64,000 nt of DNA from Escherichia coli (GCF_050920415.1 NZ_CP169309.1); one strand, 5' to 3'; shown: positions 1,593 to 32,150, counted from the first letter of the stretch. The notes: generated by a model not told the origin, from the sequence alone. A program made the numbers and translations.

Positions 1593-3569
1593 ATGTCTGA
1601 CGACATGTCTATGGGTTTGCCTTCGTCAGCGGGCGAACACGGTGTACTACGCTCCATGCAGGAGGTTGCAATGAGCTCCCAGGAAGCCAGCAAGATGCTG
1701 CGTACTTACAATATTGCCTGGTGGGGCAATAACTATTATGACGTTAACGAGCTGGGCCACATTAGCGTGTGCCCGGACCCGGACGTCCCGGAAGCTCGCG
1801 TCGATCTCGCGCAGTTAGTGAAAACTCGTGAAGCACAGGGTCAGCGTCTGCCTGCACTGTTCTGTTTCCCACAGATCCTGCAGCACCGTTTGCGTTCCAT
1901 TAACGCCGCGTTCAAACGTGCGCGGGAATCCTACGGCTATAACGGCGATTACTTCCTCGTTTATCCGATCAAAGTTAACCAGCACCGCCGCGTGATTGAA
2001 TCCCTGATTCATTCAGGCGAACCGCTGGGCCTGGAAGCCGGTTCCAAAGCTGAGTTGATGGCGGTACTGGCGCATGCTGGCATGACCCGTAGCGTCATCG
2101 TCTGCAATGGTTATAAAGACCGAGAATATATCCGCCTGGCATTAATTGGCGAGAAGATGGGCCATAAGGTCTATCTGGTCATTGAGAAGATGTCAGAAAT
2201 CGCCATTGTGCTGGATGAAGCAGAACGTCTGAATGTCGTTCCTCGTCTGGGCGTGCGCGCGCGTCTGGCGTCTCAAGGTTCTGGCAAATGGCAGTCTTCT
2301 GGCGGGGAAAAATCGAAGTTCGGCCTGGCGGCGACTCAGGTACTGCAACTGGTTGAAACCCTGCGTGAAGCCGGACGTCTCGACAGCCTGCAACTGCTGC
2401 ACTTCCACCTCGGTTCGCAGATGGCGAATATTCGCGATATCGCCACGGGCGTTCGTGAATCCGCGCGTTTCTATGTGGAACTGCACAAGCTGGGCGTCAA
2501 TATTCAGTGCTTTGATGTCGGCGGCGGTCTGGGTGTGGACTATGAAGGTACTCGTTCGCAGTCCGACTGTTCAGTGAATTACGGCCTCAATGAATACGCC
2601 AACAACATCATTTGGGCGATTGGCGATGCGTGTGAAGAAAATGGTCTGCCGCATCCGACAGTAATCACCGAATCAGGTCGTGCGGTGACTGCGCATCACA
2701 CCGTGCTGGTGTCGAATATCATCGGCGTGGAACGTAACGAATACACGATGCCGACCGCGCCAGCAGAAGACGCGCCGCGCGCGCTGCAAAGCATGTGGGA
2801 AACCTGGCAGGAGATGCACGAACCGGGAACTCGCCGTTCTCTGCGTGAGTGGTTACATGACAGCCAGATGGACTTGCACGACATTCATATCGGCTATTCT
2901 TCGGGCACTTACAACCTGCAAGAACGCGCGTGGGCTGAGCAGCTTTATCTGAGCATGTGTCATGAAGTGCAAAAGCAGCTGGATCCGCAAAACCGCGCAC
3001 ATCGCCCGATTATCGACGAATTGCAGGAACGTATGGCGGACAAAATGTACGTCAACTTCTCGCTGTTCCAGTCGATGCCGGACGCATGGGGGATCGACCA
3101 GTTGTTCCCGGTTCTGCCGCTGGAAGGGCTGAATCAAGTTCCGGAGCGGCGCGCCGTGCTGCTGGATATTACCTGTGACTCTGACGGTGCCATCGACCAC
3201 TATATCGATGGTGATGGTATTGCCACGACAATGCCTATGCCGGAGTACGATCCAGAGAATCCGCCGATGCTCGGTTTCTTTATGGTCGGCGCATATCAGG
3301 AGATCCTCGGCAACATGCACAACCTGTTTGGTGATACCGAAGCGGTTGATGTGTTCGTCTTCCCTGACGGTAGCGTAGAAGTGGAACTGTCTGACGAAGG
3401 CGATACCGTGGCGGACATGCTGCAATATGTACAGCTCGATCCGAAAACGCTGTTAACCCAGTTCCGTGATCAAGTGAAGAAAACCGATCTTGATGCTGAA
3501 CTGCAACAACAGTTCCTGGAAGAGTTCGAGGCAGGTTTGTACGGTTATACCTATCTTGAAGATGAATAA
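1593..3569 (+). CDS. speA: biosynthetic arginine decarboxylase (658 aa)
   Basis: ORF 1581-3569; start moved to ATG giving [18 protein letters not shown]. Confidence 0.95.
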
Positions 3570-3584
3570 TTAAGATTATTCCGC

Positions 3585-3630
3585 TACCGGGTCGATTTAT
3601 TTACGTAAATCGGCCCGCTTTCTTTTTATA
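3585..3630 (+). terminator. imperfect stem-loop followed by T-rich tract downstream of speA
   Basis: ggtcgattta...taaatcggcc inverted repeat then ctttcttttt. Confidence 0.4.
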
Positions 3631-3714
3631 TATTCTTAAAAATAATTTAGCTGCTTTCCTTATTGAATAATCTCCCTACAATCGCTGCATTAATTAAATG
3701 CAGAGGGAACGGTT

Positions 3715-4446
3715 ATGAAAAAATGGAAAGTACGTAGCGCGTTGGTGGCATTAGTCGTGCTGCTGGCCGGTTGTTCCAGTAATGCGCAGTATAATAGCAG
3801 TGCATCGGGCAATGTCGGCACCGCCTGGGGTGGGGATGTGCACTCAACGGTACAGGGCGTAACTGCTGAACGAGCCTGGCGCGATCCGGCAGAGATGATC
3901 GTTATTAGTTATTCGACTAATGTTCCTTCCGGCTACGACCGCGTTTATAGCATTCGTATTAACGAACTTGAATATGCTATTCGCGATGGTAATTTTAATT
4001 CTCTACCTATTACGCGGGTTTATAATTCATCAGGTAAAGAACTACGCTATATAGTCCATGCCAGAGTAGGAATGAATTACCAATTATATGTCCGCAATTA
4101 CAGTCGTAACACCAACTACGAGATCGTTGCGACAGTTGATGGTCTGGATGTTCTCAATGGTAAACAAGGTTCCCTGAATAACAACGGCTATATTGTGAAT
4201 GCCGGGGATTCGTTGGCGATTAAAGGATTCCGCAAAGATAAACATACCGAAGCGGCTTTTCAGTTCGCCAACGTTGCGGATTCCTACGCAGCCAATTCGG
4301 CGCAAGGCGATGTGCGTAATACCGGTGTAATCGGCTTTGCCGCCTTTGAATTACAAGGCCCGGCGCAAAATGCGCTGCCACCGTGCTCTGGACAAGCGTT
4401 TCCGGCGGACAACAATGGCTATGCGCCGCCACCGTGTCGGAAATAG
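3715..4446 (+). CDS. hypothetical lipoprotein (243 aa)
   Basis: ORF track; N-terminal signal peptide MKKWKVRSALVALVVLLAGCSS with LAGC lipobox; slightly AT-biased codons; bracketed by terminator-like hairpins. Confidence 0.7.
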   Translation: MKKWKVRSALVALVVLLAGCSSNAQYNSSASGNVGTAWGGDVHSTVQGVTAERAWRDPAEMIVISYSTNVPSGYDRVYSIRINELEYAIRDGNFNSLPITRVYNSSGKELRYIVHARVGMNYQLYVRNYSRNTNYEIVATVDGLDVLNGKQGSLNNNGYIVNAGDSLAIKGFRKDKHTEAAFQFANVADSYAANSAQGDVRNTGVIGFAAFELQGPAQNALPPCSGQAFPADNNGYAPPPCRK

Positions 4447-4512
4447 TAACCTCGCTTGATGCCTCGCCCATTTAAGGCGATAATTAGCACAAAATTGTGT
4501 TTCGCAAATCCA

Positions 4513-4553
4513 ACCCTTCCTCGTCGGGCCTAACGACGCGGAAGGGTTTTTTT
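4513..4553 (+). terminator. rho-independent terminator after lipoprotein gene
   Basis: cccttcc-tcgtcg...cgacg-ggaaggg stem followed by TTTTTTT. Confidence 0.6.
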
Positions 4554-4581
4554 ATATCGACTTTGTAATAGGAGTCCATCC

Positions 4582-5502
4582 ATGAGCACCTTAGGTCATC
4601 AATACGATAACTCACTGGTTTCCAACGCCTTTGGTTTTTTACGCCTGCCGATGAACTTCCAGCCGTATGACAGCGATGCTGACTGGGTAATTACCGGCGT
4701 GCCGTTCGATATGGCTACTTCCGGTCGTGCGGGTGGACGCCACGGTCCGGCGGCGATCCGTCAGGTTTCAACAAATCTGGCCTGGGAACACAACCGCTTC
4801 CCGTGGAATTTCGACATGCGCGAGCGTCTGAACGTGGTGGACTGCGGCGATCTGGTGTATGCCTTCGGCGATGCTCGTGAGATGAGCGAGAAGCTGCAGG
4901 CGCATGCCGAAAAGCTGCTGGCTGCCGGTAAGCGTATGCTCTCCTTCGGTGGTGACCACTTTGTTACCCTGCCGCTGCTGCGTGCTCATGCGAAGCATTT
5001 CGGCAAAATGGCGCTGGTACACTTTGACGCCCACACCGATACCTATGCGAACGGTTGTGAATTTGACCACGGCACTATGTTCTATACCGCGCCGAAAGAA
5101 GGTCTGATCGACCCGAATCACTCCGTACAGATTGGTATTCGTACCGAGTTTGATAAAGACAACGGCTTTACCGTACTGGACGCCTGCCAGGTGAACGATC
5201 GCAGCGTGGATGACGTTATCGCCCAGGTGAAACAGATTGTAGGTGATATGCCAGTTTACCTGACCTTTGATATCGACTGCCTGGATCCTGCTTTCGCGCC
5301 GGGAACGGGTACACCGGTGATTGGCGGTCTGACCTCCGATCGCGCCATTAAACTGGTACGCGGCCTGAAAGATCTCAACATCGTTGGGATGGACGTAGTG
5401 GAAGTGGCTCCGGCATACGATCAGTCGGAAATCACCGCTCTGGCAGCAGCGACGCTGGCGCTGGAGATGCTGTATATTCAGGCGGCGAAAAAGGGCGAGT
5501 AA
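4582..5502 (+). CDS. speB: agmatinase (306 aa)
   Basis: ORF track; arginase-family protein at expected position after speA. Confidence 0.95.
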
Positions 5503-5511
5503 GCGCCAGAT

Positions 5512-5628
5512 GCGATGTCGCCCGTAGGCCGGATAAGATGCGTCAGCATCGCATCCGGCATTGCGGACAGGGTAACAAATGTGCCATTCAAGTCAGATGC
5601 GGCGTGAACGCCTTATCTGACCTACGTT
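5512..5628. repeat. BIME: two REP (palindromic unit) copies in opposite orientation
   Basis: gtaggccggataag...gcatccggc and gtcagatgcggcgtgaacgccttatctgacctac. Confidence 0.7.
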
Positions 5629-6678: not shown

Positions 6679-8670
6679 ATGTCCTCACGTAAAGAGCTTG
6701 CCAATGCTATTCGTGCGCTGAGCATGGACGCAGTACAGAAAGCCAAATCCGGTCACCCGGGTGCCCCTATGGGTATGGCTGACATTGCCGAAGTCCTGTG
6801 GCGTGATTTCCTGAAACACAACCCGCAGAATCCGTCTTGGGCTGACCGTGACCGCTTCGTGCTGTCCAACGGCCACGGCTCCATGCTGATCTACAGCCTG
6901 CTGCACCTCACCGGTTACGATCTGCCGATGGAAGAACTGAAAAACTTCCGTCAACTGCATTCCAAAACTCCGGGCCACCCGGAAGTGGGTTACACCGCTG
7001 GTGTGGAAACCACTACAGGTCCGCTGGGTCAGGGTATTGCCAATGCAGTCGGTATGGCGATTGCAGAAAAAACGCTGGCGGCGCAGTTTAACCGTCCGGG
7101 CCACGACATCGTCGACCACTACACCTACGCCTTCATGGGCGACGGCTGCATGATGGAAGGCATCTCCCATGAAGTTTGCTCTCTGGCGGGTACGCTGAAG
7201 CTGGGTAAACTGATTGCGTTCTACGATGACAACGGTATCTCTATCGATGGTCACGTTGAAGGCTGGTTCACCGACGACACCGCAATGCGTTTCGAAGCTT
7301 ACGGCTGGCACGTTATTCGCGGCATCGACGGTCATGACGCGGCATCCATCAAACGCGCAGTAGAAGAAGCGCGCGCAGTGACTGACAAACCGTCCCTGCT
7401 GATGTGCAAAACCATCATCGGTTTCGGTTCACCGAACAAAGCCGGTACGCACGACTCCCACGGTGCGCCGCTGGGCGACGCTGAAATTGCCCTGACCCGC
7501 GAACAGCTGGGCTGGAAATATGCACCGTTCGAAATCCCGTCTGAAATCTATGCTCAGTGGGATGCGAAAGAAGCAGGCCAGGCGAAAGAATCCGCATGGA
7601 ACGAGAAATTCGCTGCTTACGCCAAAGCTTATCCGCAGGAAGCCGCTGAATTTACCCGCCGTATGAAAGGCGAAATGCCGTCTGACTTCGATGCCAAAGC
7701 GAAAGAATTCATCGCTAAACTGCAGGCTAATCCGGCGAAAATCGCCAGCCGTAAAGCGTCTCAGAATGCGATTGAAGCGTTCGGCCCGCTGTTGCCGGAA
7801 TTCCTCGGTGGCTCTGCTGACCTGGCACCGTCTAACCTGACCCTGTGGTCTGGTTCTAAAGCAATCAACGAAGATGCTGCGGGTAACTACATCCACTACG
7901 GTGTTCGCGAGTTCGGTATGACCGCGATTGCTAACGGTATCTCCCTGCACGGTGGCTTCCTGCCGTACACCTCCACCTTCCTGATGTTCGTGGAATACGC
8001 ACGTAATGCCGTACGTATGGCTGCGCTGATGAAACAGCGTCAGGTGATGGTTTACACCCACGACTCCATCGGTCTGGGCGAAGATGGCCCGACTCACCAG
8101 CCGGTAGAGCAGGTCGCTTCTCTGCGCGTGACCCCGAACATGTCTACATGGCGTCCGTGTGACCAGGTTGAATCTGCAGTAGCGTGGAAATACGGCGTTG
8201 AGCGTCAGGACGGCCCGACTGCGCTTATCCTCTCCCGTCAGAATCTGGCGCAGCAGGAACGTACCGAAGAGCAGCTGGCAAACATCGCGCGCGGTGGTTA
8301 TGTGCTGAAAGACTGTGCCGGTCAGCCGGAACTGATCTTCATCGCTACCGGTTCTGAAGTTGAACTGGCGGTTGCTGCCTACGAAAAACTGACTGCCGAA
8401 GGCGTGAAAGCGCGCGTGGTTTCCATGCCATCTACTGACGCATTCGACAAGCAGGACGCGGCTTACCGTGAATCCGTACTGCCGAAAGCGGTTACTGCAC
8501 GCGTTGCTGTGGAAGCGGGCATTGCTGACTACTGGTACAAGTATGTTGGCCTGAACGGTGCCATCATCGGTATGAATACCTTCGGTGAATCTGCACCGGC
8601 AGAGCAGTTGTTCGAAGAGTTCGGCTTCACCGTTGACAACGTTGTTGCGAAAGCAAAAGAACTGCTGTAA
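6679..8670 (+). CDS. tktA: transketolase 1 (663 aa)
   Basis: ORF 6649-8670; start moved to ATG giving [19 protein letters not shown]. Confidence 0.95.
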
Positions 8671-18159: not shown

Positions 18160-19323
18160 ATGTCTGTAATTAAGATGACCGATCTGGATCTTGCTGGGAA
18201 ACGTGTATTTATCCGTGCGGATCTGAACGTACCAGTAAAAGACGGGAAAGTAACCAGCGACGCGCGTATCCGTGCTTCTCTGCCGACCATCGAACTGGCC
18301 CTGAAACAAGGCGCGAAAGTGATGGTAACTTCCCACCTGGGTCGTCCTACCGAAGGCGAGTACAACGAAGAATTCTCTCTGCTGCCGGTTGTTAACTACC
18401 TGAAAGACAAACTGTCTAACCCGGTTCGTCTGGTTAAAGATTACCTCGACGGCGTTGACGTTGCTGAAGGTGAACTGGTTGTTCTGGAAAACGTTCGCTT
18501 CAACAAAGGCGAGAAGAAAGACGACGAAACCCTGTCCAAAAAATACGCTGCACTGTGTGACGTGTTCGTAATGGACGCATTCGGTACTGCTCACCGCGCG
18601 CAGGCTTCTACTCACGGTATCGGTAAATTCGCTGATGTTGCGTGCGCAGGCCCGCTGCTGGCAGCTGAACTGGACGCGCTGGGTAAAGCACTGAAAGAAC
18701 CTGCTCGCCCGATGGTGGCTATCGTTGGTGGTTCTAAAGTATCTACCAAACTGACCGTTCTGGACTCCCTGTCAAAAATCGCTGACCAGCTGATCGTGGG
18801 TGGTGGTATCGCTAACACCTTTATCGCGGCACAAGGCCACGATGTGGGTAAATCCCTGTACGAAGCTGATCTGGTTGACGAAGCAAAACGTCTGCTGACC
18901 ACCTGCAACATTCCGGTTCCGTCTGACGTTCGCGTAGCAACTGAGTTCTCTGAAACTGCACCGGCTACCCTGAAATCTGTTAACGATGTGAAAGCTGACG
19001 AGCAGATCCTGGATATCGGCGATGCTTCTGCGCAGGAACTGGCTGAAATCCTGAAGAATGCGAAAACCATTCTGTGGAACGGCCCGGTTGGCGTGTTCGA
19101 ATTCCCGAACTTCCGCAAAGGTACTGAAATCGTGGCTAACGCTATCGCAGACAGCGAAGCGTTCTCCATCGCTGGCGGCGGCGACACTCTGGCAGCAATC
19201 GACCTGTTCGGCATTGCTGACAAAATCTCCTACATCTCCACTGGCGGCGGCGCATTCCTCGAATTCGTGGAAGGTAAAGTACTGCCTGCAGTAGCGATGC
19301 TCGAAGAGCGCGCTAAGAAGTAA
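18160..19323 (+). CDS. pgk: phosphoglycerate kinase (387 aa)
   Basis: ORF 18097-19323 trimmed to ATG giving [17 protein letters not shown]. Confidence 0.95.
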
Positions 19324-29933: not shown

Positions 29934-30136
29934 TATTTGCTCCATAAAACGCAATCAAAATGAGGGTATTTGCGCTTACGGTGAGCTTTTTACGTGGGTT
30001 TGTCGCCAGCAAAAAAAATGCATTCAGACGTCGTTTTTTGCCGCCTGAGATTTGTCTATTTTGTGATGTGATTCAAGGAATACAAAAAGAACTGGAGGTG
30101 ATGCCTGGTATGTATTACCAGGCATTATTTGATGGA

Positions 30137-31030
30137 TTATTCCTGACGAAGAACTTTGTGACCATAATCGAGCAACGCATCAGTGACTTTACGCATCATG
30201 CGGCTTTCAGGAGCAAAGCGGTGCCAGTAGAGCATCCGGCGTTGAAATAGCCCTGGCGTTAAGTCAATCAGTTCGCCGCTGGCCAGTTCTTTCTCGATTT
30301 GCAGATGTGGGATCATACAGCAGGTGGTCCCCTGACGAGCAAGTTGCACGAACGCTTCTGAAGAATTAACGATATGGCAGGGTACGCTGCCTGGAGGCAG
30401 ATCAAAGTTTTGCTGCAAAAAGGCCTGGTGCATATCATCAAGATGGTCAAACGCGACCACTGGCGCTTTCAGTAATGCCGAACGCGTTACGCCGTTAGGG
30501 AAATATTTTTCGGCGAACGGTTTTGAGCTGACGAACAGATAGTCGAGCGCACCGAGCTTATCGACAAGACAACTCGGTAGCGCCTGATGTTGAATACTCA
30601 CCGCGCCGACCACTTCGCCGCGACGCAGACGTTCCTGAGTGCGGGTTTCATCTTCTACCTGCAAGTTGAGGCGGATAGGCGAATCAGCTAACACAGGAGC
30701 CAGCGCCGGAAGCAACCACGTCGCCAGACTGTCAGCGTTGACCGCCAGTGAAAGCAGCAGCGGAGTTGAACCGGTTTGTTCATCGCCCAGCCACTCTTCT
30801 TCCAGTAACTCCACCTGGCGTAGCAGTGCCAGCAGTTTTTGCCCTTGTTCCGTCGGGCGCGGCGGTACGGTACGCACCAACAGCGGCTGCCCGAACATAT
30901 TTTCCAGTTGCTTAATGCGCTGTGAGACGGCTGATTGTGTAATGCACAGCTTTTGTGCCGCGCGCTCAAATCCTCGTTCACGTATCACCGCATCCAGTGC
31001 CTGTAATGTTCTGTAGTCCGGGCGTTTCAT
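30137..31030 (-). CDS. argP: LysR-family regulator ArgP/IciA (297 aa)
   Basis: ORF 30137-31096 trimmed to ATG giving [21 protein letters not shown]. Confidence 0.9.
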
Positions 31031-31326
31031 TGCTGTTGTCTGCTCCTGGTAAATGCTTTTTCCTGCACTATGACACAATTTTGCGTCAGGTTGCATATAC
31101 CGAAGCCGTCGGCGGGTACATTTGTATCAGTGGTTAAACACGCAGCTTAAAAGATCAGGGATTTGCGCTATTGCATTTCGCTCAGCGAGTTCGCGCCCTG
31201 GAGCGGCATACCCAGACCTTTATATGCTTTGTTTGCGGGGCGAAAGGGGATGCCCGCTATTGCACGATATTTTATGGATGAGGTAACCACGCGACTTGCC
31301 AACGGGGTCTGAATCGCTTTTTTTGT

Positions 31327-31453
31327 ATATACTCGTCATACTTCAAGTTGCATGTGCTGCGTCTGCGTTCGCTCACCCCAGTCACTTACTTCTGTAAGCT
31401 CCTGGGGATTCACTCTCTTGTCGCCTTCCTGCAACTCGAATTATTTAGAGTAT
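31327..31453 (-). repeat. ERIC/IRU repeat, inverted relative to copy at 19387-19513
   Basis: Reverse complement matches the 19.4-kb copy over ~125 bp. Confidence 0.8.
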
Positions 31454-31490
31454 AATGCGTGTGAAATTTCATACCACAGGCGAAACGATC

Positions 31491-32150
31491 ATGACGCAGG
31501 ATGAATTGAAAAAAGCAGTAGGATGGGCGGCACTTCAGTATGTTCAGCCCGGCACCATTGTTGGTGTAGGTACAGGTTCCACCGCCGCACACTTTATTGA
31601 TGCGCTTGGCACGATGAAAGGCCAGATTGAAGGGGCTGTTTCCAGTTCGGATGCGTCCACTGAAAAACTGAAAAGCCTCGGCATTCACGTTTTTGATCTC
31701 AACGAAGTCGACAGCCTTGGCATCTACGTTGATGGCGCAGATGAAATCAACGGCCACATGCAAATGATCAAAGGCGGCGGCGCAGCGCTGACCCGTGAAA
31801 AAATCATTGCTTCGGTTGCGGAAAAATTTATCTGTATTGCAGACGCTTCTAAGCAGGTTGATATTCTGGGCAAATTCCCGCTGCCAGTAGAAGTTATCCC
31901 GATGGCACGTAGTGCAGTGGCGCGCCAGCTGGTGAAACTGGGCGGTCGTCCGGAATACCGTCAGGGCGTGGTGACCGATAACGGCAACGTGATCCTCGAC
32001 GTCCACGGCATGGAAATCCTGGACCCAATAGCGATGGAAAACGCCATAAATGCGATTCCGGGCGTGGTGACTGTTGGCTTATTTGCTAACCGTGGCGCGG
32101 ACGTTGCGCTGATTGGCACACCTGACGGTGTCAAAACCATTGTGAAATGA
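31491..32150 (+). CDS. rpiA: ribose-5-phosphate isomerase A (219 aa)
   Basis: ORF 31455-32150 trimmed to ATG giving [18 protein letters not shown]. Confidence 0.95.

Follow-up and report, generated by a model that had tools for sequence, protein, structure and literature searches.

The closest described counterparts of the gene considered here are its annotated enteric orthologues (WP_000758903, WP_000758914, WP_000758906, and WP_000758926), which represent the same gene at the same position after speA and from which it differs in nothing structural. In the O157 Sakai and Salmonella LT2 genomes, we take the gene to be most likely ECs3813 and STM3085, respectively, an assignment made by gene order and tag numbering (ECs3810 is tktA and ECs3815 is yqgB in O157). 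It is an ordinary, already catalogued, and uncharacterized gene, whose product is named in databases only as a hypothetical protein, lipoprotein, membrane protein, or outer membrane lipoprotein, and a literature search by topic and by the inferred locus tags found no paper or experiment on this protein.

Two groups of better-known proteins offer a frame for comparison. Like the classical Lol-sorted lipoproteins of Enterobacteriaceae, the encoded protein has a basic n-region, a hydrophobic h-region, an LAGC lipobox, and a Ser instead of an Asp at position +2, but its mature domain has no match among the named families of lipoproteins. It also resembles the inhibitors MliC/PliC, PliG, and PliI and the type VI secretion system (T6SS) proteins Tai, Rap, and Tli, in that all are small, beta-rich, predicted to be periplasmic, often lipid-anchored, non-enzymatic, and encoded by stand-alone genes. 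However, no homology or fold match links it to this second group, no cognate effector lies nearby, and its conservation is much stronger, such that the likeness is one of lifestyle only; one clade of the lipoprotein family does have a Rap1a-like neighbor.

We analyzed the interval between speA and speB within a window, that is, the whole stretch of 64,000 nucleotides of Escherichia coli DNA under study. The explanation that best accounts for the locus as a whole, to which we assign a probability of roughly 0.7, combines an ancestral chromosomal cassette, a speB-proximal region shared by all alleles, and a lipoprotein that would be anchored in the outer membrane and act in binding.

Layout, distribution, and age of the cassette

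The initial annotation had described a predicted lipoprotein of 243 aa between speA and speB, with an AT-rich upstream region of its own, a hairpin after speA, and a strong terminator before speB, and all four features were recovered (Table 1). The open reading frame encodes a protein with an LAGC lipobox, rich in Asn and Tyr and ending in PPC and PPPC motifs, and the spacer upstream has a GC content of only 34.5%. The hairpin after speA comprises 13 pairs (ΔG of -18.6 kcal/mol, z-score of -4.35 against shuffled sequences) and is followed by CTTTCTTTTT, while the terminator-like hairpin before speB, also detected as inverted repeat I1, comprises 14 pairs between positions 4512 and 4548 and is followed by a run of seven T (ΔG of -24.4 kcal/mol, z-score of -4.61 against shuffled sequences). 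The statement of the initial annotation that speA and speB are adjacent in K-12 also proved accurate, as the two genes are separated by 137 bp in MG1655 with no gene between them, and alignment to K-12 confirmed that the lipoprotein gene is absent from this locus.

Table 1. Positions of genes and predicted signals in the speA-speB interval, counted from the first nucleotide of the window.
Feature	Position	Strand	Basis or remark
speA (biosynthetic arginine decarboxylase), upstream neighbor	1593..3569	+	ORF; RefSeq speA in the 100%-identical NZ_CP169399
Predicted speA intrinsic terminator	3588..3627	+	Stem-loop 3588-3617 and T-tract 3618-3627; terminator scan and fold; K-12 allele lacks it
Predicted -10 box TACAAT (preceded by C) of the lipoprotein gene's promoter	3677..3682	+	Cross-taxon comparison
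Small hairpin CTGCATT-aatta-AATGCAG in the predicted 5' UTR	3685..3703	+	Read from sequence
Shine-Dalgarno GAGGGAA	3703-3709		Adjoins the 3685-3703 hairpin
Lipoprotein gene, 243 aa, 732-nt ORF	3715..4446	+	ORF; RefSeq WP_000758926.1 "hypothetical protein"; homologues; dN/dS; AlphaFold2
Lipoprotein gene: signal peptide	3715-3771
Lipoprotein gene: lipobox LAGC	3763-3774
Lipoprotein gene: mature beta-rich domain, then C-terminal AFPAD..GYAPPPC tail			Follows the lipobox
Promoter-like box TTGATG-N17-GATAAT	4456..4484	+	Promoter scan; outside the K-12 deletion; kept with and without the gene
speB-proximal hairpin and T7 run	4512..4555	+	27 nt 5' of the speB ATG; fold, inverted repeat, K-12 match, cross-taxon pairing
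speB (agmatinase), downstream neighbor	4582..5502	+	ORF; RefSeq WP_000105566.1, equal to the K-12 protein

The distribution of the gene was evaluated in 5426 complete E. coli genomes, in which the segment was scored as carried when at least 80% of positions 3400-4750 was present. By this measure, 3542 of 5426 genomes carry the lipoprotein segment, whereas 1863 display a K-12-type junction, nearly all of them with 100% identity across 180 nt. The few remaining genomes are rearranged, with, for example, truncation of the gene by IS1 in one strain or loss of speA. The window itself is 100% identical to the chromosome of E. coli MFDS1022581 (NZ_CP169399), and its genome of origin represents a divergent E. 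coli lineage, the core genes tkt and argP-rpiA being 95-99% identical to those of almost all other strains. The 96% identity of the window allele to common alleles (dS of 0.15-0.20) is thus explained by the divergence of the whole source genome.

Beyond E. coli, speA is likewise followed immediately by an orthologue in E. whittamii, E. albertii, two cryptic Escherichia, several Citrobacter and Klebsiella species, Salmonella, Kluyvera, Kosakonia, Phytobacter, Intestinirhabdus, Entomohabitans, and Enterobacter. Protein identity ranges from 58 to 94% in these taxa (74% for Salmonella) and reaches 96-100% within E. coli. The order speA-X-speB, where X denotes the lipoprotein gene, was found in 15 or more species of Enterobacteriaceae and is confined to this family; in Salmonella, the gene also follows speA, and a 7.4-kb island encoding a GntR regulator, a mannitol dehydrogenase, and other products parts it from speB. 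Because orthologues hold the same slot in other Escherichia and in related genera, its presence is, as judged from these comparisons, the ancestral state in Escherichia and its sister genera, from which the arrangement seen in K-12 is derived.

A different history would make the interval a recent strain-specific islet that was acquired horizontally, came to lie between the adjacent genes speA and speB, and gave speB a new insulation against transcription reading through from speA. The absence of the gene from K-12 and 34% of E. coli fits such a history, as does its base composition, although the GC content is reduced only slightly (GC of 48.8% and GC3 of 46%, compared to 54-55% and 61-62% for the neighboring genes), but every other Escherichia species sampled, along with Salmonella, Citrobacter, Klebsiella, and Kluyvera, has the gene in the same slot, no IS element, integrase, or long flanking repeat was found at the locus, and the supposedly insulating hairpin exists in K-12 itself. 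Separate insertions in the other genera are likewise disfavored, as these genera share both the terminator of speA and the spacer downstream of the gene with its promoter box. What remains in favor of an insertion is that speA is followed directly by the speB control region in many distant Enterobacterales, which points to an event that occurred once, deep in the past. A recent arrival is therefore highly improbable, and of the strain-variable insertion proposed in the initial annotation, the variability stands while the insertion largely does not. We consider it very likely that positions 3570-4450 constitute an old chromosomal cassette, made of a speA terminator, a promoter, and the lipoprotein gene, that predates the split of Escherichia, Salmonella, Citrobacter, and Klebsiella and that is missing from a single derived short allele found in K-12 and ~34% of E. 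coli.

The deeper history of this cassette was approached by a scan of metagenomes, which revealed many Enterobacterales lineages whose speA 3' end is 70-87% identical to that of K-12 and which, without the gene, present the speB-proximal hairpin within 50-75 nt of the speA stop codon. Since these deeper lineages are gene-less, the cassette would either have entered the site once, in the ancestor of the core Enterobacteriaceae, or have been lost several times at the depth of the order.

The odd 69-nt spacer of the K-12 allele deserves attention as a side lead. It keeps the functional-looking landmarks CTTGAA and GATAAT, 17 nt apart, along with a small palindrome, and it is only 68-70% identical to the matching stretch of gene-bearing Escherichia. 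Over the same stretch, gene-bearing Escherichia are 93-100% identical among themselves, and O111 is 73% identical to Citrobacter. Within the last 20 nt of speA, K-12 has two substitutions that no gene-bearing Escherichia shows and that recur in Salmonella and K. aerogenes, and the flanking speA and speB genes diverge by only 2-3% between the two alleles. A clean deletion or microhomology junction was considered for K-12 and rejected, as the spacer is homologous but ~30% diverged, and because of this divergence the K-12 allele cannot be read as the result of plain excision. The K-12 spacer would be accounted for if a short stretch of a foreign allele had replaced the resident one, with one crossover falling in the ultra-conserved hairpin. 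No donor was found among the gene-less enteric lineages in metagenomes, where the best match reached 68%, and a search of a plasmid collection returned only mislabelled E. coli chromosomes.

Hairpins and promoter-like boxes flanking the gene

Positions 3588-3627 and 4512-4555 both display the hallmarks of an intrinsic terminator, namely, a stable GC-rich hairpin, a T-tract directly 3' of it, and base pairs that are kept across taxa. The hairpin that follows speA recurs after this gene in Salmonella, Citrobacter, Klebsiella, and Kosakonia with different letters in its stem, as expected for a covarying structure. This extra speA terminator and ~0.9 kb of spacing are the only features specific to the gene-bearing allele.

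Downstream of this terminator, a -10 box lies at the same distance from the ATG in each taxon compared, reading TACAAT in Escherichia and Salmonella, TACACT in K. aerogenes, TACTAT in C. freundii, and TACCAT in Citrobacter FP75, whereas the bases that flank it diverge. The -35 element is weak, and a consensus promoter scan missed the site. From the conserved position of the box, we infer that the lipoprotein gene probably has its own promoter. In Salmonella, a different hairpin (CCCCCT...AGGGGG) is found where Escherichia has the small hairpin of the predicted 5' UTR.

The hairpin next to speB behaves differently from the cassette. The stretch from 4505 to 4650 matches K-12 at 145 of 146 positions, and the hairpin with its loop GGGCCTAAC hardly varies among Klebsiella, Citrobacter, Kluyvera, Enterobacter, Entomohabitans, and distant gene-less lineages. 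In Salmonella, it lies immediately 5' of speB and does not follow the lipoprotein gene, from which 7.4 kb separate it. An alignment of 14 hairpin variants had 98% of its cells paired, with compensatory changes at two pairs, the metagenome variants having been chosen by a pattern that fixes the 5' arm. A TTGAxx-N17-GATAAT box is also present ~28 nt upstream of the hairpin in K-12, Citrobacter, Kluyvera, Klebsiella, Intestinirhabdus, and gene-less lineages.

These observations run against two earlier proposals, that a strong terminator was brought in with the gene and that the insertion uncouples speB from speA read-through. The first is contradicted by the hairpin of K-12, of gene-less lineages, and of Salmonella, where it sits beside speB, and the second by its presence in K-12; because the hairpin is common to K-12 and all other alleles, any uncoupling of speB that it might cause would be universal. 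The hairpin and the promoter-like box thus likely form a speB-proximal region belonging to all alleles, to which the gene adds a second terminator and 0.9 kb, and not the barrier before speB. By its sequence, the 4512-4555 element is the predicted terminator of the lipoprotein gene in this genome and of speA in K-12.

The conserved hairpin in the speB leader also constitutes a side lead of its own. As in the polyamine leader attenuators speFL and mdtU-mdtJI, and in Rho-independent terminators, a GC-rich stem followed by a U-run precedes a polyamine-pathway gene and lies 3' of a conserved promoter-like box. Unlike the speFL and mdtU-mdtJI leaders, the 4512-4555 element shows neither an upstream ORF nor an evident alternative antiterminator pairing, and in contrast with ordinary terminators, such as the covarying one after speA, its primary sequence is far more conserved, loop included. 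The conserved box and the near-invariant hairpin and U-run could represent a dedicated Enterobacterales regulatory RNA module, acting either as a leader attenuator or as a small RNA of ~65-70 nt, an idea that we regard as doubtful. Inspection of the predicted speB leader of ~20 nt revealed no antiterminator pairing, uORF, or Rfam family, and an Rfam search of the spacers gave no family, the sole match being a sub-threshold REP/naRNA4 element after speB.

A predicted envelope lipoprotein and its family

The precursor begins with MKKWKVRSALVALVVLLAGC, in which a basic n-region and a hydrophobic core precede the lipobox and Cys20 is followed by two Ser residues. The signal peptide proper reads MKKWKVR followed by SALVALVVLLAG, as is typical of lipoproteins. 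Residues 17-20 (L-A-G-C) agree with the lipobox pattern [LVI][ASTVI][GAS]C, all 61 aligned homologues retain the Cys, and distant homologues also bear lipoboxes. With Ser at both +2 and +3, the protein is devoid of the Asp at +2 that confers inner-membrane retention. The mature protein is ~24 kDa, with 10.3% Asn and 6.2% Tyr, and the precursor has Cys residues at positions 20, 224, and 241. The latter two lie in the PPC and PPPC motifs, and the DNA encoding the two PPC motifs forms a 15-of-16 repeat. Cys224 and Cys241 are both present in 24 of the 61 homologues, both absent in 36, and split in one, and their co-occurrence in 60 of 61 cases suggests that they may form a disulfide. Invariant positions among the aligned homologues are occupied by Trp, Arg, Tyr, Asn, Glu, and Asp, and no conserved set of His, Cys, Ser, or Met residues of a catalytic or metal-binding kind was found in this alignment. 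GC-rich members of the family have long Pro/Ala-rich tethers C-terminal to the lipobox, and one member is circularly permuted.

The gene is maintained as a coding sequence. Comparison with orthologues gave dN/dS values of 0.05-0.12 for dS up to ~3, indicative of strong purifying selection, and the length of 243 aa is constant from Escherichia to Enterobacter. These data, together with the size of the family and the confident structure model described below, refute the view that the ORF is a chance or decaying frame and that the non-coding spacer is the only real feature of the interval. The frameshifted or truncated copies seen in some lineages and the RefSeq product name "hypothetical protein" are the points that could be raised for this view, which has next to no chance of being correct. 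Frameshifted alleles are nevertheless common (P0030 with 448 members, and P0025, P0032, and P0051 in Salmonella), and because of these alleles and of the loss in K-12, the gene is considered dispensable.

The structure prediction and HMM search suggested by the initial annotation were both performed, and they returned a confident model and a large family that matches no named one. A first search retrieved 285 homologues at E ≤ 1e-3, and a profile search extended this number to 4241 clusters (50% identity) at the same threshold, 3281 of which were retained at E ≤ 1e-10. A genome scan confirmed 271 matching stretches, from which 80 loci were kept in Enterobacterales, Neisseriaceae, Comamonadaceae, Burkholderia, Ralstonia, P. 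aeruginosa PA7, Paracoccus, and Inquilinus. Pfam yielded zero families for the protein and nothing consistent across 61 homologues or 10 long homologues. NCBIfam returned only signal-peptide matches (E ≥ 0.0037, far below cut-offs), PADLOC had no match for the protein, PHROGs gave E values of at least 0.011, and the PDB contained no sequence match.

The AlphaFold2 model (pLDDT of 83.5, pTM of 0.79) is all-beta with 15 strands and is confident for residues 31-219, which are followed by a disordered linker (residues 220-233) and by the conserved AFPAD..GYAPPP tail. Comparison of this fold with MATH/TRAF-type and Ig-like beta-sandwich domains, such as those of USP7 and SPOP, produced noise-level scores, with TM values of ~0.2 and 2-10% identity, and because the scores are at noise level, they provide no evidence of common descent with MATH/TRAF domains. 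Better matches were obtained with unnamed viral proteins, namely, A0A7S5RDU0 (E of 1e-5, 28% identity) and uncharacterized giant-virus proteins. This lipoprotein may represent the first member of a very widespread periplasmic family with a new structure, overlooked since K-12 lost it.

As a tentative proposal drawn from the sequence and the model, the protein could be an accessory, outer-membrane-anchored, periplasmic beta-sandwich lipoprotein of a binding or inhibitor type. After export through Sec, the precursor would receive its lipid on Cys20 and be cut by signal peptidase II, and under the +2 rule, its Ser would direct Lol sorting to the inner leaflet of the outer membrane. It would there be displayed as a compact, all-beta, non-enzymatic binding module extended by a flexible proline-rich C-terminal tail, which in enterics would probably be stapled by a Cys224-Cys241 disulfide. 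Its likely role would be to bind another envelope component or an incoming periplasmic protein, a function that would be dispensable to the cell yet kept under purifying selection where the gene is present.

Genomic neighborhoods and candidate functions

The location of the gene between speA and speB raises the possibility that the lipoprotein serves the arginine-to-putrescine pathway, for instance, as an envelope factor for agmatine or putrescine handling that is co-regulated with speA and speB. The stability of the speA-X-speB order over many genera of Enterobacteriaceae is compatible with this role, and so is the embedding of the homologue in another amino acid operon in Comamonadaceae, where it lies within the histidine operon (hisD-X-hisC) with tight spacing. 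However, the gene does not behave as a member of a speAB operon, being bracketed by its own predicted terminator and promoter (the upstream speA terminator and the -10 box), and outside Enterobacteriaceae its neighbors are unrelated housekeeping genes (metJ, thrS/recO, bioD, mltG, ahcY, and ctpA), as seen in Providencia, Proteus, Gilliamella, Neisseria, Kingella, Ralstonia, Iodobacter, and Saezia, and also in Trabulsiella. The island that parts the gene from speB in Salmonella further argues against this role, as does K-12, which makes putrescine via SpeA and SpeB without the lipoprotein gene. A polyamine role is thus improbable, and the link was rejected since the speA-speB placement is lineage-specific.

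Neighborhoods of ~20 distant homologues revealed no shared gene partner, the his-operon placement in Comamonadaceae being the sole recurring pattern. In this group, the homologue is usually followed by a gene for a secreted protein of 115 aa, with a match to Rap1a (PF18602, E of 8.5e-5, 23.4 bits) that falls under the curated cut-off of 27.7. This neighbor is the sole link to another candidate function, that of a periplasmic inhibitor or "orphan immunity" lipoprotein directed against an incoming wall-degrading enzyme (for example, a lysozyme or an amidase effector of type VI secretion), in the manner of MliC/Pli or Tai/Rap. A stand-alone, variably present, and dispensable gene found in scattered contexts, and a product predicted to be periplasmic, lipid-anchored, all-beta, and without conserved residues of a catalytic type, would suit this function well. 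Nonetheless, known inhibitor and immunity families provide neither a sequence nor a fold match, no effector or T6SS gene adjoins the homologue in the ~20 neighborhoods inspected, and the gene, strongly conserved in enterics and fixed in its place on the chromosome, does not resemble the typical fast-evolving immunity genes. We regard inhibition or immunity of this kind as unlikely and retain, tentatively, the broader proposal of an accessory binding lipoprotein.

Taken together, these results indicate that the adjacency of speA and speB in K-12 is the exception and not the rule, and that biology based on K-12 never examined the intervening gene. Models of speA-speB coupling should count the near-invariant hairpin, which accompanies speB throughout Enterobacterales, as part of the speB control region. 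We know of no mechanism that explains the long-known control of agmatinase expression, and the RNA module, if real, could underlie it. Finally, as a large family for which there is neither a Pfam model nor a solved structure, these proteins are a reasonable target for work on envelope lipoproteins in non-K-12 strains.

Origin of the K-12 short allele and lineage of the source genome

The K-12 short allele, which lacks the lipoprotein gene, has a 69-nt spacer that shares only 68-70% identity with its counterpart in gene-bearing Escherichia. Two 'foreign' substitutions lie in the final 20 nt of K-12 speA. The flanking genes differ by just 2-3%, and the comparison suggests a short allelic replacement, with a gene-less enteric as the putative donor, rather than a simple deletion. 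The source genome of the window belongs to a divergent E. coli lineage. Its core genes tkt and argP-rpiA are 95-99% identical to those of nearly all 5426 complete genomes compared, of which only 1-7 records reach at least 99% identity at these loci.

Variable junctions around speB

In Salmonella, a 7.4-kb island encoding a GntR regulator, mannitol dehydrogenase, Zn-dependent alcohol dehydrogenase, Ldh_2, DUF386 and an alpha/beta hydrolase separates the lipoprotein gene from the speB hairpin. In strain 23CRST038 the lipoprotein gene has lost its N-terminus at an IS1 element and rearrangement breakpoint, and in HT-948 (L016) yqgA-yqgH lies upstream of speB, with speA absent nearby. The site downstream of speB is a second variable junction of the locus, occupied by the regulator gene dagR in O111:H- 11128 and 23CRST038 and by loiP in K-12 and the window. 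Between speB and loiP, the window also holds a sub-threshold Rfam match to naRNA4, a REP-type element (48 bits vs a gathering score of 59.5).

Lipoprotein variants and homologues

Within the lipoprotein gene, the two Pro-Pro-Cys motifs are encoded by the copies of a 16-nt direct repeat (15/16 identical). Both motif cysteines are present in 24 of 61 homologues and both are missing in 36. Frameshift variants are common in some lineages (P0030, P0025, P0032 and P0051), several occur in Salmonella, and an E. coli variant cut at approximately residue 167 comprises 448 member sequences. The distant homologue P0278 is circularly permuted, its VATVDG half preceding the LGTxWGE half. In Comamonadaceae, the homologue (X) sits within the histidine operon, hisG-hisD-X-hisC-hisB-hisH-hisA, and usually precedes a gene for a secreted protein of 115 aa whose match to Rap1a immunity proteins is sub-threshold.

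A conserved hairpin and promoter-like box upstream of speB

Coordinates of features at the locus and in comparison genomes
Feature	Window	Other loci
Hairpin and U-run directly upstream of speB	4512-4555	Salmonella L017 ~18250-18295; L101-L148
Promoter-like box TTGATG-N17-GATAAT, ~28 nt upstream of the hairpin	4456-4484	
Spacer compared	4447-4511	K-12 L100 2651-2738
16-nt direct repeat	4370-4385, 4421-4436	
naRNA4 match	5527-5622	
tkt, argP-rpiA	6700-8600, 30000-31500	
7.4-kb island		Salmonella L017 10886-18113
dagR after speB		O111:H- 11128 L098 4862-6351; 23CRST038 L003 4748-6738
IS1 and breakpoint		23CRST038 L003 2248-3434
Homologue in histidine operon		Variovorax L010 6001-7187; L048-L096

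The primary sequence of the speB hairpin and U-run, loop included, is near-invariant in Escherichia, Salmonella, Klebsiella, Citrobacter, Kluyvera and Enterobacter, and also in lineages where the speA 3' end is just 73% identical. The speA terminator covaries, and its sequence is far less conserved than that of the speB hairpin, for which Rfam holds no family. The promoter-like box is likewise kept across genera, with or without the lipoprotein gene. The layout of putative promoter, short leader and terminator is similar to that of an attenuator or of a gene for a small RNA.
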